Below, in pieces: positions 668 to 31,288 of a stretch of DNA of 32,000 nt (position 1 is the stretch's first letter; each line of letters begins with the position of its first letter). The DNA comes from Collimonas sp. OK242 (GTDB lineage: Bacteria; Pseudomonadota; Gammaproteobacteria; Burkholderiales; Burkholderiaceae_D), in assembly GCF_900107095.1 (NCBI RefSeq), contig NZ_FNOR01000019.1, forward strand, positions 1-32,000. The letters run 5' to 3'. A model generated the notes under the pieces. It saw only the letters and a program-made list of their open reading frames with translations, was not told where the DNA came from and did no database searches. The translations under genes and the position numbers were made by a program.

Positions 668-2902
<2,235 letters not shown>

Positions 2903-2914
2903 CGGCAAGGTAAT

Positions 2915-2942
2915 GCGGATCTGCATAATTATGCAGATCCGC
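2915..2942 (+). terminator. Perfect 12-bp-stem hairpin just after the icd stop (GCGGATCTGCAT-AATT-ATGCAGATCCGC)
   Basis: Inverted repeat read directly from the sequence, 13 nt after the stop. There is no clean T-run, so the terminator assignment is tentative. Confidence 0.5.
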
Positions 2943-3096
2943 ACCAGCTTTCCGGCGCAATTTCGCACTTCGCGTCGCAACGCTACGTGTTTTGGAATGG
3001 AAGCGGTTCGAATTATTGTGTGCGAAGTACAATTCCCGACTCCGTCTAGTGCGGAGTCGGGAGCGACTTTCTGTTTGCCGACGATGTCAGTGAAAT

Positions 3097-3303
3097 CTAG
3101 TCACTGGTAATCATCAGGCATCCGGGCATGACCCTGACACGTACGTTGGCATTGGGGTTGAAGCCTGTTTGCCTGATCCCGTTGCCATGCAGGCGAATCC
3201 AGAGTGTTTCAGGATCGTCGTCCTGATAGAAGGAGACGTTGAGCCGTTGTGCTGGGTTTACTATCGATGTGCTGCTATCTCGCGTACTATTGCGCTTAGC
3301 CAT
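3097..3303 (-). CDS. symE: SymE-like (AbrB/SpoVT-fold) type I toxin, ~68 aa
   Basis: The C-terminal LWIRLHGNGIRQTGFNPNANVRVRVMPGCLMIT resembles E. coli SymE [31 protein letters not shown]. The ATG at 3303 has GGAG 6 nt upstream; the ORF-track start at 3309 is a TTG. Confidence 0.6.
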   Translation of the reverse strand: MAKRNSTRDSSTSIVNPAQRLNVSFYQDDDPETLWIRLHGNGIRQTGFNPNANVRVRVMPGCLMITSD

Positions 3304-3698
3304 ATTCAACTCCGGTTTAGTTGCTTGTGGTTAGCGGGTCATGGGTGTTTCCGCACCTCTGACCCGCGTCTATTTACTGCTCTGCATAGCGCTCTTTACT
3401 CTGAACGCCTTCTTAAAAATAGCACGTGCGCATGTTTAAAGACATCATTATCGTGCGTCGATGGATTTTTAAGAAAATGCAGATACTTGGCGTTGTTGGC
3501 TTCGACTCAGCGGGTGCAGGCTTCTTTGGATTCTTTGCCGAAAAGAAGGTCATACCTATTAGCGGATAGGGGCAAAGGCGGTTGGTATTTCAATCACACA
3601 GAATATCTGGAGATGTTTCTGCTGTATGCTCGTTTTCGCAATCTATGAGAAACTAATCGACGGCAAATTTTACGGTCACACGATATGGAGATATAGCT

Positions 3699-3986
3699 AT
3701 GGGACGGGCAAAACAAGGGCAATTCGATCAAGAGGAAAAAACGAATCGAGCTTTAGCGTTATGCGTTGAAATTGGCGCCATCGAAATATGCGATTCGCAT
3801 GAGGATACATACATCGATACTCTAGAATATTCAGACTACGACGAATTGACAACAGCAATCCTAAAAAATAATCCTGACTCGATTGATTTCTTTGATAATC
3901 GAGACGACATGCTTGACTCTATAGGAGACGCTATGGGTTCTGCTGGGGATGAGTGTGGCTCTTGCGAAAAAAACCGTAATTCATAG
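3699..3986 (+). CDS. Hypothetical very acidic 95-aa protein (23 D/E vs 8 K/R by my count; 4 Cys as Cx8C and CxxC)
   Basis: An ORF with GGAGAT 8 nt upstream of the ATG and a hairpin plus T-run downstream. No family recognised. Confidence 0.55.
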   Translation: MGRAKQGQFDQEEKTNRALALCVEIGAIEICDSHEDTYIDTLEYSDYDELTTAILKNNPDSIDFFDNRDDMLDSIGDAMGSAGDECGSCEKNRNS

Positions 3987-4066
3987 ATTGCAAATTCGAA
4001 GACCAAACATAAAATGCAAACCTGCCTGTTATAACAGGATTAAAAGTAACGCTTAACTTGGACTTG

Positions 4067-4101
4067 CCAAAGGCTTTCGTTTCCGAGGGCCTTTGGTTTT
4101 T
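4067..4101 (+). terminator. Rho-independent terminator candidate downstream of the acidic-protein gene
   Basis: CCAAAGGC (4067-4074) pairs with GCCTTTGG (4089-4096), followed by TTTTT (4097-4101). Confidence 0.55.
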
Positions 4102-4373
4102 AGACTTATCAACAGTTGCGTGATAAGCCCATGAGCTGGAAAGGGTGGAATTGTAACTCGGCGTTGGATGTCATATATCCTTGGTCGGCATAGAGGTGAC
4201 TTTACACGACGCTGCCTGCTTCGCCGCTGCGTATCTAGCATTTCATTTTGCCCCCGACCCAATAGTCTCGTACATGGCAACATCGAACACCGAGTGTTCG
4301 ACTTGATACAACTTAACGTCTTTTTTCCTGAAATGCTATTGCGTTGTCTGCGGCCATTGAAATGACTACGCGA

Positions 4374-5501
4374 TTAAACAGTGGAGAGCGCTATCTCTGC
4401 TTCGCTTTCTGTCGCTGTCGATGCCAATTGTTGTATGAGCCGGGCCAGTTGGCGGGCTGTATAGCAAACGTGATGGTTCATGTCAGCTATGACCCACGTA
4501 GCAAGTGAACCGGGCCTAATTAGGCGTCTTGCGCAATCATCGATGTAAGTATCACCAAAGCTGCGTGTCCGACCCACATATCGAAAATCTGCGCTAACGC
4601 GACTGGCTAGATCGTGATACTGATCATAGTCCTTGATGGGGTGGTGGAGGGCATGGCCTCTAAAATAGATGATTTTATCGCCAGCGGTATAGCGAATTTT
4701 GGCGTTCACGTACCGGCTTGTTGTTTGATCACTGAAATCGGGATGTATGATGCCGTAATCCCCAAATGTTGGTTTGATTGTATCGGGCATGTCCCGCCAG
4801 AGAGCTGACCAAAGACGCAGTTCTTGGCGAATCACCTCGCCGACCTTATTTTTCTCGATACTACCCACGGTTTTCAGTGCGGAAGAACCGGCAATTACTA
4901 TTGATCTATAACCGGCGATGTTCGGGTTGTGAAAGAGAAAAGAAACTATGTTCTCTGCTAGGTTCGATGTGTCGTCCCCATCTATGTGTCGCAAGTCTAA
5001 AAGTAAATCAATTTTGTTTTGTGGCAGCCGCATCTGAGCGGTGCGTTCGATAATTTGCGCCCAGACATCATCGAAGAGATATTCAGCTAGATCGTCACGA
5101 GACAAGCGAAAGCAAAATCCTTTATTGAAATCCCGAGCAATCACGCCGAGCGCATCCCACAAATCATCATTTCGTTCGAATCCATACGCCGGAGTCACGG
5201 AGCGTCCGAATGCTTTTAATAGCGCGAATCCATGAAGGGTAGCGTTTGTGCCGTCTGAGATCGTCGCGTCCGGCATCAAACCGTGGAAATCTACGAAAAT
5301 CTCACCAAGCGGCAAATGCTTTCGAATGTACTCGCAGAGTTTGAAGACGTGCTCCTCTACCAGTGGAGCCTTGGGATTGATTGGCATCGCTTCGATGAAC
5401 GGTTTCATCAGTTGACGAACATCATTGTTGACCCTGCCAACGGCCATCAAATCATTTTTTTTGCCCTTGACCAGCGGCACATAAACTGAGCGACTATTCA
5501 T
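4374..5501 (-). CDS. 375-aa protein, tentatively Beta_protein (PF14350)/sce7725-like; third gene of the higB operon
   Basis: AGGAG lies 6 nt upstream of the ATG, which is 29 nt after the upstream stop. The N-terminal YVPLVKGKKNDLMAV...KPFIEAMP matches my recollection of the 'beta family protein' N-terminal signature. The family call is from memory and unverified. Confidence 0.5.
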   Translation of the reverse strand: MNSRSVYVPLVKGKKNDLMAVGRVNNDVRQLMKPFIEAMPINPKAPLVEEHVFKLCEYIRKHLPLGEIFVDFHGLMPDATISDGTNATLHGFALLKAFGRSVTPAYGFERNDDLWDALGVIARDFNKGFCFRLSRDDLAEYLFDDVWAQIIERTAQMRLPQNKIDLLLDLRHIDGDDTSNLAENIVSFLFHNPNIAGYRSIVIAGSSALKTVGSIEKNKVGEVIRQELRLWSALWRDMPDTIKPTFGDYGIIHPDFSDQTTSRYVNAKIRYTAGDKIIYFRGHALHHPIKDYDQYHDLASRVSADFRYVGRTRSFGDTYIDDCARRLIRPGSLATWVIADMNHHVCYTARQLARLIQQLASTATESEAEIALSTV

Positions 5502-5530
5502 CGATATCTCCTGCTTACGTCAACAAGATT

Positions 5531-6748
5531 TCATTGAAAATGCTGTTGTACCAATCCCTGCTCTAAAAATTCACGAAAATGCTCGTAGTGACCGCTCTCG
5601 AACTGAATTCGTCCAGCCACAATTGCTGGGTGAATATGCAGACTGTCCGCAAGTTCTTGAATGCTTTGATTTGTAGGGGCGAGTCTAGCCGACGAACGCT
5701 CCCAAACGGCACGGCGAATAAATGAATCGCGGGCTATACGATTCGCTTCATTCTCTTTTTGTTCGCTCTTCTCAGTACTCGCAATTCGTTCAATGCGATC
5801 AATAAACGCCTCGTCGGCAGTATTCAAGTGTTTCCACACGTGCGCGACCTCGTGCATCAATGTGAACCAAAAATAGTCAGTTCGATCAATTCGCAGCGTC
5901 AGACCAATCACCGGGGTGCCTCGCTCAGACAGCATCGCTGCGCCATCTATTACAGCGTTCGGTAGCCGAGGCTCGACGATCACTGCAATACCACACTTCG
6001 ATAGGAATTCAACTGCCAGGCGAGGGCCATTACTGAACCAACTTAGTCGAGCAAGGTCTCGCAACGTATCAGCAGAAATTTTTCCAGGATCAAATTTAGG
6101 TAAATCATTCTCGACATCCTTGGCACGCATCAAGACCCGGGCTGTCCATGCTAATGTCGAATAGTACGCCTTTTCATCGAGCTTATCGCCCCGAAACCTG
6201 CGTCTAAACATGATAGGCACTTGGCGGCTCGGAACAATCTGGGTAAGGAAAGAGCGAAGCCTCTCTTCTGCATTCTTCCCGCTAATTTTTGCTGCGCTGA
6301 ACCACCCACGCCTTTCCATCTCCCGATAGGGAAACCGTTTCCAGTCGATTTCTTCGACGTTGCTCTCACTGTCACGTGATGGAACGGGTTCTCTTCCGAT
6401 GAGAGCATCTGCTGGAATTCCAAGGCCGCTCGACAGAGCGCGAATCATTTGCACCGTTAGAGGTCGTTTGCCTCCTAACACTTCAGAAACCCGGCTTCTG
6501 CTGCCCAAGAGCGGAACGAGGTCCTTCTGTCGAAGTCCCTGTTCAGCCATTCGAAATTCAATAATCTCGATTGGATCAAGTGCCTCGAATTGATATGCAC
6601 GCTTTTCGTAATCTTCAATCAGGAGAGCAAGCAATGCGAGGCGATCACCTTCGGTCGATCCAATCGGTGGGTCAAGTGCAACAAGCTCCTCCGCTTCTAG
6701 CAGCGCAGTTTGATGTTCAGTTTCGCTTTTCAGAATTCTATATTCCAT
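5531..6748 (-). CDS. higA: HigA-type XRE HTH antitoxin domain fused to an ImmA/IrrE (M78, COG2856) zinc metallopeptidase domain (405 aa)
   Basis: The N-terminal ~120 aa align with E. coli HigA/YgjM (GSRSRVSEVLGGKRPLTVQMIRALSSGLGIPADALI vs GSKSMVSRVLSGKRKLTLEHAKKLATRFGISPALFI). The C-terminal domain carries HEVAH (nt 5840-5854) and a downstream ENEANRIARDSFI (ExxANxFA) motif. The ATG at 6748 lies 1 nt after the higB TGA. Confidence 0.85.
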   Translation of the reverse strand: MEYRILKSETEHQTALLEAEELVALDPPIGSTEGDRLALLALLIEDYEKRAYQFEALDPIEIIEFRMAEQGLRQKDLVPLLGSRSRVSEVLGGKRPLTVQMIRALSSGLGIPADALIGREPVPSRDSESNVEEIDWKRFPYREMERRGWFSAAKISGKNAEERLRSFLTQIVPSRQVPIMFRRRFRGDKLDEKAYYSTLAWTARVLMRAKDVENDLPKFDPGKISADTLRDLARLSWFSNGPRLAVEFLSKCGIAVIVEPRLPNAVIDGAAMLSERGTPVIGLTLRIDRTDYFWFTLMHEVAHVWKHLNTADEAFIDRIERIASTEKSEQKENEANRIARDSFIRRAVWERSSARLAPTNQSIQELADSLHIHPAIVAGRIQFESGHYEHFREFLEQGLVQQHFQ

Positions 6749-6749
6749 A

Positions 6750-7034
6750 TCAATGCATCCGCTTCGTGTACTGGTCATGTGTGCCCACCCATTTGATGGA
6801 TATCACCCCTGCGTTGTACGCCACCTGGGTTTCCAGGCGGTACTCGTTGCCGCGCACGTTAAAGATGACAATGTTTGTCGCTAAAAAGCTGGCAGACGGA
6901 TATCTGTCCTTGATATCGTGGCTAGTCTCCCAGCGACTGGCGCGTGCATCTGCGATCCAGTTCGATATCCACTTGCGGCAGTCTGCGTGCTTGTCGCAAA
7001 AGGCGGCAAGCACCCCAAGTCCAACAATCCTCAT
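6750..7034 (-). CDS. higB: HigB-type (PF09907, YgjN-like) mRNA interferase toxin, 94 aa
   Basis: FNVRGNEYRLE...IKWVGTHDQY parallels E. coli HigB FNVGGNELRVV...IREVMTHKEY. I take the start at MRIVGLG (ATG 7034) with GGGAG upstream; the longer ORF-track start at 7133 is unlikely. Confidence 0.85.
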   Translation of the reverse strand: MRIVGLGVLAAFCDKHADCRKWISNWIADARASRWETSHDIKDRYPSASFLATNIVIFNVRGNEYRLETQVAYNAGVISIKWVGTHDQYTKRMH

Positions 7035-7045
7035 TAAAACCAGGC

Positions 7046-7083
7046 TCCCATAAATGCTTCGAATCTCGAATCCCATTATGGGA
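7046..7083. promoter_or_regulatory. 8-bp inverted repeat TCCCATAA-N22-TTATGGGA overlapping the higB Shine-Dalgarno; candidate HigA operator or SD-sequestering hairpin
   Basis: The repeat arms are at 7046-7053 and 7076-7083, with an internal TCGAATCTCGAAT tandem. The proximal arm overlaps the GGGAG SD on the minus strand. Confidence 0.4.
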
Positions 7084-7458
7084 ACATATTTATTGTTACC
7101 GATTTGGGATCGGTCGTCAATGCCAAATTGCACCTAAGTAAGTGCCTTCCTGTCGCGACATGCCTGGTAATCGAGGAATTAGTGTTTAGCTAGAAACAGA
7201 CATGTGGTGATATTCATGCAGTGTGACAAAAACAGCGCCAAATGCATTTTCCAATTATGAGCATTGCTCAAGTGCAAATATTTCTCAGCTTGAATGCGAT
7301 AGTGCCAGCCCGTCCAACAAGGCATACTTTCTTTGCAATACTAATTCATCCGCACTTGCCCCACAGATTTTGTCCAACAAGTATATGTTTAAGATTTTCT
7401 TTACATATTCTATGAAGTACTAAATACTTGTTATGCATTATCAAAAAAGGGGAACAGA

Positions 7459-8019
7459 ATGGCAGCAGGGCAAACTATTGGATACTTGCGAGTATCGACC
7501 GCTGGGCAAAATACAGCGCGTCAACTTGACGGCATTGCGCTAGATCAAGTATTTGAAGACAAATGCAGTGGAAGCACGACGGATAGGCCACAACTTACGG
7601 CAATGCTCAAACATGCTCGATCAGGTGACACAGTCGTAGTGCATGAGATAAGCCGACTAGCTCGTAACACTGCCGATTTGCTAGACCTCGTAAAGCTGCT
7701 CACTACCAAGGGTGTGACTGTCTCGTTCATCAACGAGTCAATGACCTTTGCCGCTGGCAAAGATAACCCGATGAATACCATGTTCCTAACCATCATTGGA
7801 GCCATTAGTGCATTCGAGCTATCGATGATTAATGAGAGACGTGCTGAAGGCCAAGCCAAGGCGCGAGCTGAAGGTAAACACATGGGACGTACTGCGAAGC
7901 TGACAGCCGAGCAGATCGCAGTAATTAAGCAACGCGCTGCAACTGAGAGCAAGACCGCGCTGGCTGATGAGTATGGCGTATCCAGGGCAACGCTATATTC
8001 AGTATTGAAGGTGGCTTAG
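7459..8019 (+). CDS. Small serine recombinase (resolvase/invertase family), 186 aa
   Basis: An N-terminal IGYLRVSTAGQ catalytic-serine motif, a central SRLARN, and a C-terminal HTH (EYGVSRATLYSVLK). GGGGAA lies upstream of the ATG. Confidence 0.9.
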   Translation: MAAGQTIGYLRVSTAGQNTARQLDGIALDQVFEDKCSGSTTDRPQLTAMLKHARSGDTVVVHEISRLARNTADLLDLVKLLTTKGVTVSFINESMTFAAGKDNPMNTMFLTIIGAISAFELSMINERRAEGQAKARAEGKHMGRTAKLTAEQIAVIKQRAATESKTALADEYGVSRATLYSVLKVA

Positions 8020-8183
8020 GTCCATACAGCCGTCGGAATTGCATTAGGCCCATAGGCCGTCGTGAGTCGCACAAACCGGGAGCTGTACGATGCTTTTTTT
8101 CCTGACAATTCAACCCACAATTAAGGCTTGATTCTTACTATCTGATATACGATGTTATTCTTATTTGGCCAGAGAGGTCAGTC

Positions 8184-8408
8184 ATGAAAAAATCTGCAAG
8201 GATCAGAAACACAGTTTCCTATGTCAATGAGAAAAACCAACGCATCAATGTTCCGTTGGGACCGTGCGAGATTGAAGAATATCCTTCATCGAGCAAGATC
8301 GCTGCAAGAATTTGGTGGACTGACAAGGATGTGGAGAATATGACTGATCTCAGTGATGCGGAATGGGCGCACTACAAGTCCACAAAAGCATTCGTCATTG
8401 ATGATTAA
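8184..8408 (+). CDS. Hypothetical 74-aa protein upstream of the HEPN gene
   Basis: An ORF with GAGAGG 6 nt upstream of the ATG. No family recognised. Confidence 0.45.
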   Translation: MKKSARIRNTVSYVNEKNQRINVPLGPCEIEEYPSSSKIAARIWWTDKDVENMTDLSDAEWAHYKSTKAFVIDD

Positions 8409-8465
8409 TATGGTGCAGCCATTTGGAATTGCTCATGCAAACCAATCGTCGCCATTCGATACTCA

Positions 8466-9989
8466 ATGACGGCAGCATTTGAAATAACTAATACTGGGCA
8501 CGCGACCATGAAGAATTCCAAGAAAAATAATCTACAAAGCGCAGGCAATTTCACGATACCAAATGAACAAAAAGTATTTGGAAACCTTCATCTAAATGGC
8601 CGCAGCACAGTATTGCATCTTCAGCCCAAAGCTGAATTATCACCGCTCGATGAGAACAGCGTAATAAATGGAGAGTTGGGTGATCTCAGAAAAGTGAGCT
8701 GCTTACAGTGCGTCGTTGGATCTACAGGAGGTGGATTTCGAGGTGATGCTGGACAGTATCACTATGCTGACATATTCCCACATTTTGTCACTATAGGGGA
8801 TCAGCACTTAAAACCTGACGCGCACTCCATCAAAGCCGCTCATTTCACAACCAATGACGTGCCCTTGATTTTCAACGACTTTGGCGCATTCGGCCACTTT
8901 ACAGATTCAAACTCGCTAGTTAAATCTTTTGTTAAGGAAAATAGGCCCACGCACGAAATTGCACTTGGCGACTCACCCGAAATTTTCTATTTTTCAGGGA
9001 AAGATGAGGTTATTGCAGTAGATACACCTATCGGCCAGTTCCGCGTATCTCATCGACCAAGCTACCGTACGGGCGGTTCAAATGGTTCGCTCGTAAAGAA
9101 CAGCATGATTGTGACCTTGGAATACTCTGAGCCGGTCGTCCTTGGCGTGTGCATCGAGAGACTGATGTCGATCCACCGATTCCTTAGCCTCATGGCAGGT
9201 CGCAAGCAGTCAATCGAGTCAGTCTCTCTTGAGCTTGTCGGCCATTCCGTCAGCAAGCCGTCACTGCTTGAGTTGCACTGGTCTTTCGCGCCCAAACGGC
9301 CCAAAAAAGATGATAACGTGCCTCGTATAGGAGATATTCCTCTCGATGCAGTTCGTCGACCGGAGGAATTTAAAGTCGTTCTCAAAAATTGGCTAAGTCG
9401 AGAAGCCGAATGGCGGACAGCACGTATCCGATACGCAGGATGTATGGGAAAAGGAAACTCTTATAGTATTGATCGCATTGTCGCCGCCGCAAATATGTTT
9501 GATATTTTGCCCCAGGATGCGATGCCATCGGCATCTCCTCTTTCGGACGAACTTATCAAGGCACAGAAGGATTGTCGTGAAATTTTGAAGCGATTAGCTG
9601 TGGGAGTAGAGCGAGACAGCATACTTGGGGCACTAGGCAGGATGAACCAGCCTTCGCTCACGAAGAAAGTACTTCATCGAGTCGATATGGTGAATGTCCA
9701 TTTGGCCAGTCAATTTCCTGAGCTTGCGTCGGTTGCTACTACAGCGGTCAAGATCCGCAATTTCTTCGTGCATGGAAGCTCAGGTGGCTTTGATCCAGAG
9801 AAATTAGAGCCGTTACTGCCATTTCTCACGAATACTCTGGAATTTATCTTTGCCGCGTCTGATTTGATAAATGCCGGTTGGGATGCTCCAGCTTGGGGCA
9901 AAAGGCACCATAGTCGGGGGCATAATTTCATAAGTTTTCGGTGGGGTTACGAAAATCATCTTGCGCTTCTGAAGAAAGCTCTGTCGTAA
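8466..9989 (+). CDS. ApeA-like defence protein: ApeA-type N-terminal domain plus a C-terminal HEPN RNase-like domain
   Basis: An RNFFVH (Rx4H) HEPN motif at nt 9756-9773. The N-terminal GNFTIPNEQKVFGNLHLNGRSTVLHL resembles the ApeA_NTD1 opening (GxFWLP...GxLxf). The start is uncertain (8466 or the ATG at 8508). Confidence 0.6.
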   Translation: MTAAFEITNTGHATMKNSKKNNLQSAGNFTIPNEQKVFGNLHLNGRSTVLHLQPKAELSPLDENSVINGELGDLRKVSCLQCVVGSTGGGFRGDAGQYHYADIFPHFVTIGDQHLKPDAHSIKAAHFTTNDVPLIFNDFGAFGHFTDSNSLVKSFVKENRPTHEIALGDSPEIFYFSGKDEVIAVDTPIGQFRVSHRPSYRTGGSNGSLVKNSMIVTLEYSEPVVLGVCIERLMSIHRFLSLMAGRKQSIESVSLELVGHSVSKPSLLELHWSFAPKRPKKDDNVPRIGDIPLDAVRRPEEFKVVLKNWLSREAEWRTARIRYAGCMGKGNSYSIDRIVAAANMFDILPQDAMPSASPLSDELIKAQKDCREILKRLAVGVERDSILGALGRMNQPSLTKKVLHRVDMVNVHLASQFPELASVATTAVKIRNFFVHGSSGGFDPEKLEPLLPFLTNTLEFIFAASDLINAGWDAPAWGKRHHSRGHNFISFRWGYENHLALLKKALS

Positions 9990-10026
9990 CATCGCTACGA
10001 CGTTCGAAGTGACATGCGTCACGCTT

Positions 10027-10908
10027 CTATGCCGGTGCTGGACCGAATAGTCTCTCAAACAAGGCCAGAACATTCTTTCTCATATCTAACTGCTGCTGCA
10101 TGAACTCTGCCTCATCAGGCGACAAGTGAATTTCTTTCCTCAACGAGCTAATTAGCTGCACCATTGTTTTTTGTAAAGGTTCCATTTCCGCGATCAGTTT
10201 ACGCGAGTAGGCTAATTGTTGCGGGGCGAGAGCTTCTCTCATATGAGCCCGGTGTCTTTTGATTGCATCCACAAGATCATTTGCCTCTTTCCAAGCCTTT
10301 TGAACTGCCTCGATAACGTTAGCGTCTGCCCCTTGCTCAGCCAGATCGGCAAGTTTCACACTTTTGCGCAGCACCTCGCTTTCGGCGTGGATCAGCTTCT
10401 TATTTAGCTCCCAGACTGGATCCAGCGCTAATCGTAGAGGAAATGCAGATGCTAGCGCCAGCAAGTACACTTCTGACATTTTGTTAGCAAGGTCGCGCGA
10501 TAAATGAGCAGCTTCCGACTCTGCTACAAGCCAAATTTTTGAGTTGGCCTTTAAGAAAACCTGAAGGGCATCACTATCAGTGTTTCCGGAAAAATCTAAG
10601 GGCTTAAAAGGGAAACCACCAATAGCCCCAAGAGCCGCGTGTGTCTCCTCCACTGCTTTCGTGTAGACCTCACGCCTAATTGCTGCTTTTCGATCTTCCT
10701 CTTTTTGGATGGCGTCATGGGATCGCTGTTTGTCAGCTTCCAATTTATCGTGAACGTGTTGGTCTCTCAAACGCTTGTAGCTGCTATTGTTGGCAGAACG
10801 GATCCCAACATACGACATGCCGGATGCCAGCAAGGCACCAATTGCCCCCGACCAAATCACAGCCGGTATGCTATCAATCCAAACGAAAAACGCGTCCCAC
10901 AAATCCAT
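10027..10908 (-). CDS. Hypothetical membrane-anchored all-alpha protein (one N-terminal TM, then a ~250-aa helical/coiled-coil region)
   Basis: A hydrophobic segment IPAVIWSGAIGALLASGMSYVGI is followed by charged helical sequence. GAGGTG lies upstream of the ATG, 60 nt downstream of the DUF4145 gene on the same strand. Confidence 0.7.
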   Translation of the reverse strand: MDLWDAFFVWIDSIPAVIWSGAIGALLASGMSYVGIRSANNSSYKRLRDQHVHDKLEADKQRSHDAIQKEEDRKAAIRREVYTKAVEETHAALGAIGGFPFKPLDFSGNTDSDALQVFLKANSKIWLVAESEAAHLSRDLANKMSEVYLLALASAFPLRLALDPVWELNKKLIHAESEVLRKSVKLADLAEQGADANVIEAVQKAWKEANDLVDAIKRHRAHMREALAPQQLAYSRKLIAEMEPLQKTMVQLISSLRKEIHLSPDEAEFMQQQLDMRKNVLALFERLFGPAPA

Positions 10909-10968
10909 CTTTCACCTCAAATCATTGATGTAACTTGGAACACGTGGGCTTCGCGTAAGCTGAAGCTG

Positions 10969-11622
10969 TTATTGCTTCATCTCTGGTTTTCCAGCCGCTT
11001 TGAGTTTTGCATTTAGTGCATCTCGTCTTTGCTTTGCTTTTTCCGGTTGAACGTAGAAAAAATCAAATAACTCTTCCAAAACGTCTAAGTTCCACTCTGC
11101 CTCCTCGGGTTCCACGGACATAATTGACCCGCTGCTGGTGTCCTTCATTGGATGGGCGGCAAAATTACCTATATTGCGTACCGCGTCCAGATTGTCGGCA
11201 ATTGCAGGTGGCAATTTATTTGAATCTATAGCTGCCTTAATTGCTGGAGCAAGATTGTGTTGAGTGAAGCCATTCTCGTGCAACACGCCTTGAAGACAAC
11301 GCCGACTCAATGCAGCAGACGCTTTAGGGCTATCAGATAGTACAAGGCACGCTTCGTTAAAATCCTCTGCGAGATTTGCTGGCACCTCTGCCGGTGCCTT
11401 CGGCCTATTAGCCGCACGAGGATAGACTAATCGCATCGGTGTACCAATAATCCCGTTTCCTAACTGAGAGGATAGGAAAATTATCGCGTCATGGCAGGAT
11501 GGACATTCCATATGCGTCGCGGTCCAATATAAAGGTGCGCCGTGTTTTTCCCCAATTGCTGGATTAAACGTTGTTGTGTGAAAGCCTGGATGAATCTCAA
11601 TTTGGCAGTGCGGACATTGCAT
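10969..11622 (-). CDS. Zn-ribbon (CPHC...CPSC) plus DUF4145-like domain protein, 217 aa
   Basis: Cys pairs at residues 3/6 and 40/43. LDAVRNIGNFAAHP (nt 11152-11178 cover R149-H157) matches the conserved RxxGNxxAH signature I associate with DUF4145 (PF13643). AGGGG lies 6 nt upstream of the ATG. Confidence 0.7.
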   Translation of the reverse strand: MQCPHCQIEIHPGFHTTTFNPAIGEKHGAPLYWTATHMECPSCHDAIIFLSSQLGNGIIGTPMRLVYPRAANRPKAPAEVPANLAEDFNEACLVLSDSPKASAALSRRCLQGVLHENGFTQHNLAPAIKAAIDSNKLPPAIADNLDAVRNIGNFAAHPMKDTSSGSIMSVEPEEAEWNLDVLEELFDFFYVQPEKAKQRRDALNAKLKAAGKPEMKQ

Positions 11623-11745
11623 TGTTGGCCCCTAACAGAAAATGATTGTGCAGTTCATATAGTTTTTATTTATGCAAGTTAGAGTATCCGGAATACTGCC
11701 CAATTGCATCAATTTGCATCAAAATAATTCTCACCTGTCTTGCCA

Positions 11746-11773
11746 TTGCCATATTTCGCAAATCTCATATACT
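11746..11773 (+). promoter_or_regulatory. Sigma70-type promoter TTGCCA-N16-TATACT
   Basis: The -35 is at 11746-11751 and the -10 at 11768-11773. The -10 overlaps the LexA box. Confidence 0.55.
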
Positions 11774-11789
11774 GTACATTCATACAGTT
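11770..11789. promoter_or_regulatory. LexA (SOS) box TACTGTACATTCATACAGTT
   Basis: CTGT (11772-11775)-N8-ACAG (11784-11787) with TA/T flanks, a full match to the beta/gammaproteobacterial CTGT-N8-ACAG core. Confidence 0.7.
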
Positions 11790-11805
11790 GTTTGGGGTGG
11801 CAAAA

Positions 11806-11940
11806 ATGTTTGTGCGTGTCGAATGCCTCTGGGATGAGGGACGCCGATTAGAACGTGACGTATTGGCAGCACGCAAGAGAAATTGCATTTGTGGCGAACT
11901 GCGCCTAGAGCGTCAAAAGCATGAATATCTTGCGGAGTGA
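11806..11940 (+). CDS. 44-aa ORF (MFVRVECLWDEGRRLERDVLAARKRNCICGELRLERQKHEYLAE) downstream of the SOS promoter
   Basis: GGGGTGG lies 5 nt upstream of the ATG, which is 17 nt downstream of the LexA box. The product is charged and helical-looking with 3 Cys. It may instead be part of a non-coding RNA. Confidence 0.4.
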   Translation: MFVRVECLWDEGRRLERDVLAARKRNCICGELRLERQKHEYLAE

Positions 11941-12020
11941 ACTACTCTTGTGGCACGTCTAATGAATGGGGACTTTGACTCACTGTCACCGTTACAAGAT
12001 GCTGTAGATTAGATCGGTGG

Positions 12021-12040
12021 ATAGCGTTTTAAAACGCTAT
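12021..12040 (+). terminator. Perfect 20-bp palindrome ATAGCGTTTTAAAACGCTAT, then TTGAGTCTT; likely end of the SOS-controlled transcript
   Basis: Read directly from the sequence, 80 nt after the micro-ORF stop. Confidence 0.4.
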
Positions 12041-12152
12041 TTGAGTCTTAAATTAATCCGCTGATTTCGCAATCAATTACGATTTTGGTTCAGCCTATGG
12101 CTGTATCTGATACGTCTTGAAAATTTGGAGATTCCGGCGAATGCGGGAACCT

Positions 12153-12899
12153 TTATTCTGATTGCAATGTTTTTTGAGCGAATCGTATTTGCACAAAACT
12201 TTGCCCGGGAAATATGCTTTGCAACGCGATTTGCATTTGGTTATCCATTTTCTTCGTCGTGGCGATGCCCTCGTCCACTTGCCTGATGAATTGATCGGTC
12301 AACGCGGCCAGCTTGGCATACTCAGCTCTAAAAATCGTCTGCAATGATTCGTGCGTCAGATTAGGGATGTTCTTTGAAAGCACGGCCTTGCGCAAATCAT
12401 CGTGCGCGACGGCTCGCAGTTCAACGGTGTTGAGCAGAGCTTGATGATGCCAGTCAAGGACTCGCAACTCCACCAGAGCCATTGAGCACAGCTCGCCGTC
12501 TTGATCCAGAAAATAGTTGAGGCTGTCGAAATCGAAATGGAGCGATTGCATCATGCCGGGCTGCGGCGAGTCCATGAGGAATGCACGGTCTTCGCTTTGC
12601 CTGATGTCTTCGTGATCTATGAAGAATTGACGCAAATTGTCGAATACGTTGAACATGGTTGCAATTGTGAACAACGCTTTGTTCGCTGACGAAATACGTA
12701 TATTGCGCTCGGCCTCATCGCGTGTTTTCCGCTCCGCGCTGAACGCAGCCCATCCGCCTGCCCACGCCGCTACAAATGTTCCGAAGACTGTGACGATGAG
12801 ATCGACGTATCTATCATGATGCGTGTAGATCAGCACTCCGGAAAAAATGAATGCGGCGAGAATGACTACGATGAACGGACGGTTGAATTTGGACAGCAT
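12153..12899 (-). CDS. Hypothetical protein with an N-terminal 2-TM hairpin plus a ~190-aa soluble helical domain (248 aa from MLSKFNRP)
   Basis: Two hydrophobic helices (FIVVILAAFIFSGVLIY; LIVTVFGTFVAAWAGGWAAF). I take the start at 12899 because the ORF-track start (13001) overlaps the upstream gene. Confidence 0.6.
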   Translation of the reverse strand: MLSKFNRPFIVVILAAFIFSGVLIYTHHDRYVDLIVTVFGTFVAAWAGGWAAFSAERKTRDEAERNIRISSANKALFTIATMFNVFDNLRQFFIDHEDIRQSEDRAFLMDSPQPGMMQSLHFDFDSLNYFLDQDGELCSMALVELRVLDWHHQALLNTVELRAVAHDDLRKAVLSKNIPNLTHESLQTIFRAEYAKLAALTDQFIRQVDEGIATTKKMDNQMQIALQSIFPGQSFVQIRFAQKTLQSE

Positions 12900-12952
12900 C
12901 GCGCTTTTCCATGAAATGGGGGCAGTGCACAGTATGAAAATGGGTTGAATGT

Positions 12953-13582
12953 CTATGCGTCGGTGCGCGGCTTCGATTCTCGAAATCCACGAACGATCCA
13001 ACGGACGACGGAAGCGAAAAGCTCAGAAAACATCCATAACAGCAATGGAAGCGCGATGCCGACAAGTAGGAAGCGGGACCAACGAATTTCCGATGTCTTC
13101 GGAATGCCATCCTGTTTCGACCAATAGATTTCCCAAGGTTTGATCTCTCTCTCCGTCGACAGATCGAATCCTTTCTTATCGCCACTCTGCTTGGCTTGCT
13201 GATTCTTGGGAACGAGAGATGCGGCCGAGCGGGGGGCGCGCAGCAAGGCTTCCAATCGGGCCGCGAGTTCCGGCGTCAACTTGTTGGGCATGTCCACTAT
13301 GGTGCCGTCAGGCATCTGCACGGGGACAGCGGACTGTCCCTCTTCCTTTTCTCGGCGAACAGCGAATTCAATTTCTTCTTGGTCCGAAAGCCGGACGTTG
13401 CGGCCATCCGGCAAAGTGGCCGTGTCGCCTTTGACCAATGTCCCGACAGGAATACCTTGATAAACGAAGTAGCCGTCGTTCTTGCTGAAATAATCCGTTC
13501 CCGCGATTATCGACGCGATGCCGATCCACAGTATCGACATCGCCAAGGCGATGCGCCTCCACCCATTTAAGCGGACAACCAT
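12953..13582 (-). CDS. Hypothetical membrane protein with N- and C-terminal TM helices flanking a ~150-aa charged domain (209 aa from MVVRLNGW)
   Basis: GGGAGA lies 5 nt upstream of the ATG at 13582. TM segments are IALAMSILWIGIASIIAG and FLLVGIALPLLLWMFSELFASVV. Confidence 0.6.
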   Translation of the reverse strand: MVVRLNGWRRIALAMSILWIGIASIIAGTDYFSKNDGYFVYQGIPVGTLVKGDTATLPDGRNVRLSDQEEIEFAVRREKEEGQSAVPVQMPDGTIVDMPNKLTPELAARLEALLRAPRSAASLVPKNQQAKQSGDKKGFDLSTEREIKPWEIYWSKQDGIPKTSEIRWSRFLLVGIALPLLLWMFSELFASVVRWIVRGFRESKPRTDA

Positions 13583-13964
13583 ATTTTTCTCCCGTCGATA
13601 TACCGCTGGAGTAGACAGGCTATCACAACAGGCAAATTCGATGCCTCCATTCAATCAAAGCGGCAATTAGAGACTCTATGGATCAGATCGGGGAATTGTT
13701 TGGCGAGTGGCTTCGGTCACTCGCCATTTTTATCGGGCAAACGAAAAGTTTAAAAAATTGCCGGAGATTTTTGAGGCTACGGGTGAGCAAAATTAAAAAA
13801 TTGCCCGTTAATAAGTGTACCCGCCACTTTCAAAGCGGACGGCTAACTAACTTTGGTCTCGATGGTGGCGAGTTAGGATTTTCTGACCGAATAAGTTCTT
13901 GGTTTTTGCGACTCAAAGAAATGAAGCGGGTCGATACAGACCATCCATTTTGTACCCTGAGAGG

Positions 13965-13999
13965 CAAAAAATGAAAAAGGCCAATCCGAAGATTGGCCT
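13965..13999 (-). terminator. Rho-independent terminator of tRNA-Pro
   Basis: The minus strand reads AGGCCAATC-TTCG-GATTGGCCT followed by TTTTCATTTTTG, starting 17 nt after the tRNA 3' end. Confidence 0.75.
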
Positions 14000-14015
14000 A
14001 AGTCATTGATTCAAT

Positions 14016-14092
14016 TGGTCGGGGCGAGAAGATTCGAACTTCCGACCCCTTGCACCCCATGCAAGTACGCTACCAGGCTGCGCTACGCCCCG
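14016..14092 (-). tRNA. tRNA-Pro (anticodon GGG), 77 nt with encoded CCA
   Basis: The minus strand reads CGGGGCG-TA-GCGC-AGCCTGGTA-GCGT-A-CTTGC-ATGGGGT-GCAAG-GGGTC-GGAAG-TTCGAAT-CTTCT-CGCCCCG-ACCA. This is a cloverleaf with anticodon loop AU-GGG-GU. A TATAAT at 14103-14108 (minus strand) is a likely -10. Confidence 0.9.
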
Positions 14093-14244
14093 ACAAGCCT
14101 GCTATTATATCAGAGCAAAATTGCTTTGTTTCCAAGGCAATACATAAAATTTTAACTGTTTGTTCGCCAGACGATGACGCCGTTCATTGCAGTTTGCAAT
14201 GAACCGTCAGATCGCCCGGCCGGCAATCCTCATTCGATAATCTT

Positions 14245-15366
14245 ATGCCAATAAAAATTAGCCAGCAGTTTGACGCCGCCGCCATCGAAGTGTTGCGCGC
14301 CGATAGTCCTCAGCAGATTGAATTGAACATCCGTAGCGACTCGCATGCGGATTTCACGCAATGGTTCTATTTCCGCTTGCAAGGTGCGCGCGGCGAGGCT
14401 TGCCGCATCCGTTTCATGAATGCCGGCGCCGCTACCTATCCCAAGGGCTGGGAAAACTATCAGGCGGTGGCCAGCTACGATCGCGAGACCTGGTTCCGGG
14501 TGCCGACCAGTTTTGACTGCGAGGTGATGACCATTGCCCATACGCCGGAACGCGATAGCGTGTATTACGCCTATTTCGAACCGTATTCGTGGGAGCGTCA
14601 TCTGGCCTTGCTGGGGCGCGCAGAGAAATCGCCTTTGGCGCGGGTGCAGGATCTGGGCGGCACGGTTGACGGTCGCGATATGAATCTGCTGGTGATCGGC
14701 AATCCGGCCGCGGCCAAGAAGGTGTGGGTGATTGCGCGCCAGCATCCGGGTGAAACCATGGCGGAATGGTTTGTCGAGGGCATGGTCGATGCATTGCTGG
14801 ACCGTGCCAATCCGCTGGCGAACAAGGTGCTGCAGCATGCGGTGTTCTACATCGTGCCGAACATGAATCCGGATGGTTCCGTGCGCGGCAACCTGCGGAC
14901 CAACGCTGCCGGCGCCAACCTGAATCGCGAGTGGATGACGCCGTCGCTGGAGCGCAGCCCCGAAGTATTTGTGGTCAAGAACAAGATTCACGAAACCGGC
15001 TGCGATCTGTTCCTGGACGTGCATGGCGATGAGGCTTTGCCGTATGTGTTTGTGGCCGGCTCGGAAATGCTGGAAGATTTTAGTCCGCAGCAGGGCGTGG
15101 AGCAGCAAAAATTCATAGCCGATTTCTTGCGCGCCAGCCCGGATTTCCAGACTGAATACGGCTATGCGGCGAGCAAGTACAGCAGCGATGTGCTGACCCT
15201 GGCGTCGAAATATGTCGGCCATACCTTCAAGTGCATATCGCTGACCCTGGAGTTGCCGTTCAAGGATAACGTCAACCTGCCGGATGCGCAGGTCGGCTGG
15301 GATGGCGCTCGCAGTGCGCGTTTGGGGGCGGTGGTGTTGCAGCCGATATTGCGGGCGTTTGAATAG
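14245..15366 (+). CDS. M14-family zinc carboxypeptidase (cytosolic carboxypeptidase-like, with an N-terminal beta domain)
   Basis: ARQHPGETMAEW (HxxE zinc motif), NPDG...R.N..G.NLNR and LDVHGDE motifs. Confidence 0.85.
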   Translation: MPIKISQQFDAAAIEVLRADSPQQIELNIRSDSHADFTQWFYFRLQGARGEACRIRFMNAGAATYPKGWENYQAVASYDRETWFRVPTSFDCEVMTIAHTPERDSVYYAYFEPYSWERHLALLGRAEKSPLARVQDLGGTVDGRDMNLLVIGNPAAAKKVWVIARQHPGETMAEWFVEGMVDALLDRANPLANKVLQHAVFYIVPNMNPDGSVRGNLRTNAAGANLNREWMTPSLERSPEVFVVKNKIHETGCDLFLDVHGDEALPYVFVAGSEMLEDFSPQQGVEQQKFIADFLRASPDFQTEYGYAASKYSSDVLTLASKYVGHTFKCISLTLELPFKDNVNLPDAQVGWDGARSARLGAVVLQPILRAFE

Positions 15367-31179: not shown

Positions 31180-31288
31180 TAGAGCCCTTCCCCACAACTT
31201 GATGTGCAATCCGCTAACCGGTCAGGCCGTGTCGCGGAAGGTTATGTTAACCCGCTAATCTCGCGAAACGCGAAGAAAGGTGAGCAAG
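31180..31288 (+). ncRNA. Structured sucA 5' leader; candidate sucA RNA motif (Burkholderiales cis-regulatory element)
   Basis: Nested pairings CCTTCC/GGAAGG and TCCGC/GCGGA, a TCGCG-AAA-CGCGA hairpin just 5' of the SD (AAAGGTGAG), and a duplicated CCGCTAA. The position upstream of sucA matches the published motif context. No covariance model was run. Confidence 0.35.

Follow-up and report, generated by a model that had tools for sequence, protein, structure and literature searches.

PD-T7-4 is a phage-defence system that was discovered by functional selection in E. coli (Vassallo 2022, PMC9519451); its structure has been solved (PDB 9y9c) and it has been renamed RAZR, for ring-activated zinc-finger RNase (Zhang 2026, PMC13017515). 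RAZR proteins from E. coli UMB1727 and Klebsiella variicola have been described (PMC9519451, PMC13017515). The N-terminal Cys4 zinc ribbon of RAZR binds large ring-forming phage proteins, namely portal proteins or the Gp77 recombinase, and the protein forms higher-order oligomers, with a 24-mer ring as the active form (PMC13017515). Its DUF4145 domain is a divergent HEPN RNase with the catalytic residues R146 and H154, which cleaves single-stranded RNA non-specifically and thereby stops translation in an abortive-infection response; the R146A and H154A variants have lost defence (PMC13017515). One gene on a low-copy plasmid is enough for protection and no partner is needed, while the zinc finger, the most variable region of the protein, sets phage specificity (PMC13017515). 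Here we compare this system with two adjacent minus-strand genes, which we call gene A and gene B, located at positions 10,027 to 11,622 of a 32,000-nucleotide (nt) stretch of Collimonas sp. OK242 DNA (contig NZ_FNOR01000019.1, positions 1 to 32,000; the window hereafter). An initial annotation had read them as a two-gene cassette in which a cytosolic sensor (A) is coupled to a membrane-anchored effector (B). We consider it quite probable that they are instead two independent single-gene cassettes, which became neighbors by chance in a low-GC defence island linked to a tRNA-Pro gene.

Two further groups of described proteins are relevant to this comparison. DS-38 also carries a zinc finger and a HEPN domain in a single protein and has been validated in defence; when it is compared with PD-T7-4, only the HEPN domains superimpose (bioRxiv 10.1101/2025.01.08.631726). 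In membrane-associated HEPN proteins, a transmembrane (TM) segment is fused to a DUF4145 domain (Anantharaman et al. 2013, PMC3710099).

Judged from its sequence, gene A is a diverged new member of the PD-T7-4/RAZR family. Its sole match in PADLOC is the PD-T7-4 profile (PDLC04109; E = 3.2e-20, 70.5 bits), in an alignment that places residues 2-158 of gene A on positions 15-155 of the 211 profile positions and takes in the zinc finger together with the HEPN core. The RAZR chain 9y9c_OA is likewise the only significant match among the PDB sequences, with E = 3.4e-8 when the single sequence was used as the query and E = 1.7e-13 when a profile of 55 sequences was used. R149 and H157 of gene A align on R146 and H154 of RAZR, with RNIGNFAAH standing opposite RIVGNQAVH. 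These two residues and the four cysteines C3, C6, C40 and C43, which form the pairs CPHC (residues 3-6) and CPSC (residues 40-43), are invariant across 55 gene-A homologues. A sequence search recovered 7,028 homologues of gene A, and PHROG 1305 was matched with an E value of 3e-32. The initial annotation had already recognized a 4-Cys ribbon joined to a DUF4145 domain and had suspected a HEPN-like protein of the abortive-infection type, and in this it was right; it did not recognize that gene A belongs to the named and structurally solved PD-T7-4/RAZR family.

The resemblance to RAZR extends to overall architecture. Gene A encodes 217 amino acids (aa), RAZR has 219, and both follow the order N-terminal Cys4 zinc ribbon, linker and DUF4145/HEPN domain, with the R-x7-H catalytic spacing preserved in a residue-for-residue alignment. 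Both also occur as single-gene loci in which no partner is conserved, and these mostly lie on mobile elements or in islands. Gene A differs from RAZR in that the two are only about 30% identical over the linker and HEPN core, in its host, a soil betaproteobacterium, and in the unrelated membrane-protein gene that lies 60 nt downstream; ring assembly, non-specific cleavage of single-stranded RNA and abortive infection are documented only for the proteins from E. coli and Klebsiella (PMC13017515) and are predicted for gene A. With DS-38, gene A was compared by description only; the PADLOC PD-T7-4 profile does span the zinc finger of gene A.

An AlphaFold2 model of gene A (predicted local distance difference test, pLDDT, 92) comprises a beta-rich N-terminal domain with pLDDT values above 90, in which strands are predicted at residues 15-18, 29-39, 46-54 and 64-67, and a helical C-terminal domain. 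Foldseek searches with this model gave weak HEPN matches (7ae6, 1wol, 2hsb), none of which was significant; they are consistent with the family assignment and are not decisive alone. Structure 9y9c was not recovered by Foldseek from the model, and the family call rests on the sequence match.

If gene A works as its characterized homologue does, it would idle in the cell as linear oligomers. During infection, the Cys4 zinc finger would bind a large ring-forming phage protein, the role that portal proteins or the Gp77 recombinase play in E. coli, and binding would bend the oligomer into a ring, so that neighboring DUF4145/HEPN domains bring their R149 and H157 residues together into active RNase sites. 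Non-specific cleavage of single-stranded RNA would then stop translation and abort the infection. All of these steps are taken over from RAZR, by analogy with which gene A would unite sensor and effector in one protein. Gene B, for which a hydrophobic anchor in N-out orientation and an elongated bundle of helices in the cytoplasm are predicted, would stand outside the gene A system.

The evolutionary independence of the two genes is evident from their distribution in other genomes. The comparison covered about 30 distinct contexts of gene B, with enough upstream sequence for a judgement in about 22 of them, and 17 gene-A loci, of which 16 came from a genome scan with gene A and one from a further look-up. 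A relative of gene A was present near gene B in none of the gene-B contexts, and gene B was present near a gene-A relative in none of the 17 loci. A scan of metagenomes with a gene-B profile yielded 24 loci in which neither tblastn nor a profile hidden Markov model (HMM; E up to 1) found a relative of gene A, and in a profile-HMM re-check the window was the only one among 53 sequences to carry both genes. Exact-protein look-ups and plasmid searches had added gene-B contexts from Collimonas OK307, Variovorax, Janthinobacterium, Lysobacter, Paraburkholderia, Burkholderia and several metagenomes; these too are without gene A, as judged from gene calls and annotation and, for the part that had been retrieved earlier, also from the HMM re-check.

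An all-against-all BLAST comparison of the gene-B neighborhoods revealed no recurring neighbor family, the only hits being antisense shadow open reading frames (ORFs) and near-duplicate contigs. The genes found upstream of gene B elsewhere are diverse: a PD-T4-7-like gene (contig L002), a PD-Lambda-4_A-like gene (L041, E = 1e-77), genes for MauJ-like, serine recombinase, KfrA, DUF4209, AHSA1 and T5orf172 proteins, a JmjC gene after a gap of 600 nt, a GGDEF sensor gene, an HU gene and a type I restriction-modification (R-M) operon. Some copies of gene B have a divergent gene, small ORFs only, or nothing upstream. Gene A, for its part, has no neighbor family common to its 17 loci, except for a lineage-specific synteny with dnaX and ybaB-recR in Anaerolineales.

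That synteny was seen in four metagenome-assembled genomes of Anaerolineales/Chloroflexota, in which a RAZR-like gene-A homologue of about 50% identity lies between dnaX and ybaB-recR (at about 5001-5660 in L031, L032 and L035, and at 2941-3600 in L036). This housekeeping operon is an unusual site for a defence gene.

Particularly informative is a related metagenome contig, L002, from the same tRNA-Pro island. In a blastn comparison, positions 3958-4906 of this contig match positions 10951-10024 of the window; the homology starts 18 nt past the stop codon of gene A and ends 3 nt past that of gene B. The sequence upstream of the gene-B block in L002 is unrelated to the window, and the gene found there is the PD-T4-7-like one (PADLOC, E = 1e-26). 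The same contig also carries the flank of the Collimonas island, tRNA-Pro plus a carboxypeptidase gene (window 13947-14618, 85% identity). Because the homology is limited to 10024-10951, gene B travels as a cassette of its own, consisting of the ORF and a conserved leader of about 43 nt that includes the Shine-Dalgarno sequence, and the junction between A and B is a recombination joint. The coordinates and strand of the two ORFs, their 60-nt spacing and a good Shine-Dalgarno sequence (GAGGTG, 5-6 nt before the ATG of gene B) had all been described accurately before; a movement of A and B as one unit is contradicted by L002, which carries only the gene-B block, with the breakpoint in the gap.

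These data bear directly on the proposal that A and B form a dedicated abortive-infection pair, a cytosolic sensor and a membrane-disrupting effector. The arrangement in the window speaks for it: the genes are adjacent, co-oriented and 60 nt apart, with a strong Shine-Dalgarno sequence and no terminator motif between them, and both lie inside a defence island. Against this stand a co-occurrence elsewhere of 0 among about 47 distinct loci, a gene A family about 100 times the size of the close gene B family (7,028 versus 72), and a gene-B block that moves alone. Moreover, the effector site is intact in gene A itself, and for its characterized homologue RAZR one gene suffices for defence, with the zinc finger as sensor and the HEPN domain of the same polypeptide as effector. 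We therefore regard a specific two-gene system as very improbable. The initial annotation had itself set synteny in other genomes as the yardstick beforehand, and its two-gene system fails because none was seen in the loci compared. The TM-DUF4145 fusions follow the very logic that had been proposed for A and B, in that a HEPN RNase of the DUF4145 type is joined to an element that spans the membrane (PMC3710099). In these proteins, however, both parts reside in one polypeptide, whereas gene A has no hydrophobic segment in a Kyte-Doolittle scan and gene B is separate, independently mobile and without a HEPN match in Pfam or PADLOC.

Several observations weigh against our reading of the locus as two unconnected single-gene cassettes. 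For gene A, the predicted RAZR-like activity builds on a HEPN core of about 30% identity, and phmmer could not align the zinc fingers of gene A and RAZR; the HMMER alignment with 9y9c starts at RAZR residue 61 and crosses the conserved linker (RAZR residues 66-79), which in RAZR packs against helices of the HEPN domain, with modest similarity. The failure of the zinc fingers to align agrees with the published variability of this region in RAZR. Since the zinc finger has diverged and is the specificity determinant of RAZR, the triggers of gene A probably differ from those of the E. coli protein. With regard to transcription, consensus scans of the intergenic region (10909-10968) detected no promoter-like or terminator-like site on the minus strand, and because the genes are also co-oriented and 60 nt apart and the gene-B leader comprises only about 43 nt, A and B are probably transcribed as one unit in this genome. 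Co-transcription by read-through would be an accident of cassette packing and not a sign of functional coupling. Finally, HEPN proteins are over-represented directly upstream of gene B, which could reflect a loose functional link between gene B and HEPN RNases: the canonical RNxxxH motif occurs in 4/16 upstream ORFs versus 2/95 other ORFs within 5 kb (Fisher p = 0.004), and a HEPN-motif protein directly precedes gene B in 5 of about 23 contexts, again versus 2/95 nearby ORFs (Fisher p = 0.003-0.004).

The four motif-bearing ORFs are found in contigs L048, L017, L015 and L011, and the RAZR gene of the window is the fifth case. In L048 (3086-3889), the RNxxxH motif is accompanied by matches to Pfam HEPN (E = 0.06) and PADLOC CARF_HEPN (E = 7e-4); the motif is present in L017 in ORF 2557-3366, in L015 in a DUF4209 protein (57-644), DUF4209 being the C6orf70 HEPN family (PMC3710099), and in L011 inside a MauJ-like match (2546-3901). 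One may conceive of gene B as a promiscuous membrane partner, whether tether, regulator or second effector, of whichever HEPN RNase lies upstream. In addition to the enrichment, the gaps to the upstream HEPN gene (24-170 nt, same strand) and the known fusions of HEPN domains with TM segments (PMC3710099) fit such modular pairing. The idea is nevertheless improbable. About 18 of the 23 contexts have a non-HEPN gene or no gene upstream, several gene-B copies are clearly monocistronic with upstream gaps of 200-600 nt or divergent neighbors, and six further contexts added no new case and so brought the count to 5/23. When the upstream neighbors were compared with the immediate downstream neighbors of gene B, to which the HEPN protein ApeA of the window belongs, the difference was not significant (5/17 versus 2/17, p = 0.40). 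HEPN proteins are also among the commonest products of defence islands, occurring in 18 of 132 systems in one preprint survey (bioRxiv 10.1101/2024.10.26.620412) and in 6 of 21 systems in another study (PMC9519451), and RAZR can do without a partner (PMC13017515).

The proteins encoded upstream of gene B in L048, L017, L015 and L011 are mutually unrelated, and two of the four are without a family above the Pfam curated cut-offs. They may be unrecognized HEPN defence proteins.

Gene B itself belongs to a family without a name, whose members are about 280 aa long and have a putative N-terminal hydrophobic anchor and an all-helical domain. It had no match in Pfam, PADLOC, NCBIfam or PHROGs. A word-indexed search found 72 close homologues, mostly from Burkholderiales and soil metagenomes, and an exhaustive profile search extended the family to 1,212 clusters at E <=1e-3 (597 at E <=1e-10), almost all of which are 270-300 aa long and match end to end. 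All named relatives are annotated as "hypothetical protein". Since both have many homologues, gene A and gene B are real genes, and they are under selection. Exact protein matches of the two genes point to Collimonas sp. OK242 as the source, and a megablast of the region with E. coli genomes and plasmids gave no match. The gene B family is marked by the charged stretch QKxEDRKAAIRREVY, with D72, R73, K74, R78, R79 and Y82 being invariant in 70 sequences, by a P-x-V-I-W-S-G hydrophobic helix near residue 15, and by the motifs FLKANxKxWLVAE and LVSxLRKE.

The initial annotation had described gene B as a membrane-anchored, all-helical protein with a long coiled-coil-like region, a description that stands in part. 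The Gly/Ala/Ser-rich segment of residues ~14-36 reaches a Kyte-Doolittle peak of 1.49 over 19 residues, just below the usual cut-off of 1.6, and at the same site 88% of the close and 94% of the distant relatives exceed 1.6, with medians of 1.9-2.0. The flanking charges fit an N-out, C-in topology. The AlphaFold2 model (pLDDT 94.3, predicted template modelling score 0.75) is helical throughout the segments 16-101, 113-128, 131-191, 196-241, 243-259 and 266-288, and points to a folded helical bundle rather than a loose coiled coil. The putative N-out anchor would contain a small-residue zipper, and the invariant basic patch D-R-K...R-R...Y would lie on the cytoplasmic bundle. Foldseek comparisons of the model with PDB and BFVD gave nothing significant (best E = 0.029, TM-score <=0.31). 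The top non-significant matches, BAR domains, Vipp1/PspA (ESCRT-III) and four-helix-bundle sensor domains (PilJ, TorS, McpS), share the elongated antiparallel helical bundle with gene B, a likeness of shape only, and differ from it in that no sequence relationship was found.

A kinship of gene B with the nearby 282-aa TM protein or with the 296-aa ORF upstream of it in L002 was rejected (hhalign probability <1%), as was an identity with PD-Lambda-4_B, for which PADLOC gave no match. One relative (P0192; L023 3479-4690 / L022) has 403 aa according to the ORF call and carries an N-terminal extension of about 130 aa.

Gene B moves between defence islands, prophage-like regions and small integrative elements. 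Among 111 ORFs scanned in its neighborhoods, we encountered Dsr2, R-M systems of types I, IIG and IV, MADS components, AriA, PbeA and several PADLOC candidate families. The association of both genes with defence islands, which the initial annotation had proposed as a check, was thus confirmed, through PD-Lambda-2 and ApeA in the window and through Dsr2-like, PD-Lambda-4_A-like, R-M and MADS genes elsewhere.

In Collimonas sp. OK307 (L041, 4156-12914), a gene-B homologue of 60% identity lies between genes for a PD-Lambda-4_A-like protein of 1266 aa (44-nt gap) and a Dsr2-like SIR2 protein of 1300 aa. All three are on the same strand, and a HipA toxin-antitoxin pair and a reverse transcriptase gene adjoin; no PD-Lambda-4_B equivalent was seen in this contig.

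What gene B does can be addressed only speculatively. At low confidence, we propose as its most likely role that it acts autonomously at the inner membrane in defence or exclusion, because a putative N-out anchor bearing a small-residue zipper is combined with a cytoplasmic bundle on which a basic patch is invariant, and because its neighbors include defence genes. An alternative, on balance rather unlikely, is that gene B plays no part in phage defence and encodes a housekeeping protein of the envelope or a protein of mobile elements, active for instance in membrane stress or remodelling, which hitch-hikes in variable regions. Copies that reside among housekeeping genes (Lysobacter L051, L060) or follow a GGDEF protein (L056) would suit such a role, as would the BAR, Vipp1/PspA and sensor-domain likenesses, the lack of any PADLOC match, and a search of IMG/VR viral contigs with close-subfamily patterns that found no gene B. 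Its patchy, cassette-like distribution with sharp homology borders points the other way, and so do the many copies that sit directly between genuine defence genes, such as those in L041 (PD-Lambda-4_A-like, Dsr2-like), L052 (Mrr, HNH, type ISP), L064 (type I R-M) and the window (RAZR, ApeA). A broader proposal, that gene B represents a new defence-island family which acts either stand-alone, in an anti-phage or exclusion function, or as a plug-in partner of diverse upstream HEPN RNases, we regard as doubtful; if the plug-in alternative were true, A and B of the window would be a real, non-obligate functional couple.

Under the favored reading of two independent cassettes, gene A carries the RAZR mechanism, solved only recently, into the soil Burkholderiales, and its zinc finger is strongly diverged. 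It would help to address which ring-shaped proteins of phages other RAZR clades recognize. Tight, co-oriented spacing and the appearance of a sensor plus a TM protein are insufficient to call a two-gene system in a defence island, because such islands pack their cassettes closely and exchange them at the borders of genes. The gene B family is sizeable and uncharacterized, occurs with defence genes and integrative elements, and is a reasonable candidate for functional screening. Taken alone, the finding will not surprise a specialist and is of ordinary to moderate interest.

Both genes are cargo of the same defence island, independent of each other. The island extends from about 2950 to 14000, between the gene for a monomeric isocitrate dehydrogenase and tRNA-Pro(GGG), and stands out in the GC profile with values of 0.44-0.50 inside versus 0.58-0.61 outside. 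Its cargo consists of PD-Lambda-2, a small serine recombinase gene, the ApeA gene, genes A and B, and two further membrane-protein genes without assignment (Table 1).

Table 1. Features of genes A and B and of the surrounding defence island, in window coordinates
Feature	Position	Strand	Size, basis or remarks
Gene A	10969..11622	minus	217 aa, ATG start; ORF call
Gene A, zinc-finger domain, residues 1 to ~67	11422..11622	minus	Cys4: C3, C6, C40, C43
Gene A, DUF4145 / divergent HEPN domain, residues 89-182	11077..11358	minus	Pfam PF13643, E 4.4e-15
Gene A, predicted catalytic motif R149-N-I-G-N-F-A-A-H157	11152..11178	minus	aligned to RAZR RIVGNQAVH
A-B intergenic region	10909..10968	minus	60 nt; holds recombination breakpoint and gene-B Shine-Dalgarno sequence
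Gene B	10027..10908	minus	293 aa, ATG start; ORF call
Gene B, hydrophobic small-residue-rich helix, residues 14-36, putative membrane anchor	10801..10869	minus	Kyte-Doolittle
Gene B, signature motif QKxEDRKAAIRREVY, residues 68-82	10663..10707	minus	conservation
Gene-B cassette, block common with metagenome contig L002	10024..10951	minus	blastn, 90.5% nt identity
ApeA-type defence gene, convergent with gene B	8466..9989	plus	Pfam ApeA_NTD1 E 1.4e-17, HEPN_Apea E 2e-8
PD-Lambda-2 three-gene system, complete	4374..7133	minus	PADLOC and Pfam
PD-Lambda-2 A, HigB-like	6750..7133	minus	Pfam HigB_toxin
PD-Lambda-2 B, Xre-type helix-turn-helix and M78 peptidase	5531..6778	minus	PADLOC E 4e-157; Pfam HTH_3 and Peptidase_M78
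PD-Lambda-2 C, Beta protein	4374..5501	minus	PADLOC E 3e-184; Pfam Beta_protein
tRNA-Pro(GGG), one island boundary	14016..14092	minus	ARAGORN and Rfam

A hairpin with 26-nt arms (2903-2954) directly follows the isocitrate dehydrogenase gene at one boundary of the island, and the interior between this hairpin and tRNA-Pro is without an integrase gene. On the plus strand (7459-9989), the gene for the small serine recombinase, a 186-aa protein of the resolvase/invertase type, is followed by a 74-aa ORF and then by the ApeA gene, which is convergent with gene B. Shuffling of the island could involve this recombinase; a search for cassette-border repeats or recombination sites gave only short repeats at chance level, none fitting the recombinase.

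The 530 nt upstream of gene A (11623-12152) are AT-rich and contain no long ORF, Rfam match or minus-strand promoter match; presumably they represent the regulatory region of gene A or cassette debris. Farther upstream on the minus strand (12153-13654) are two ORFs of 233 aa (12953-13654) and 282 aa (12153-13001), which overlap by 49 nt. Each encodes two hydrophobic segments, neither has a match in Pfam, PADLOC, PHROGs or NCBIfam, and both are absent from L002. They may form a genuine two-gene membrane module of the island. The only structured RNAs that Rfam detected in the window were tRNA-Pro and, far from genes A and B, a sucA RNA motif (RF01070; plus strand, 31204-31286, 85.5 bits).

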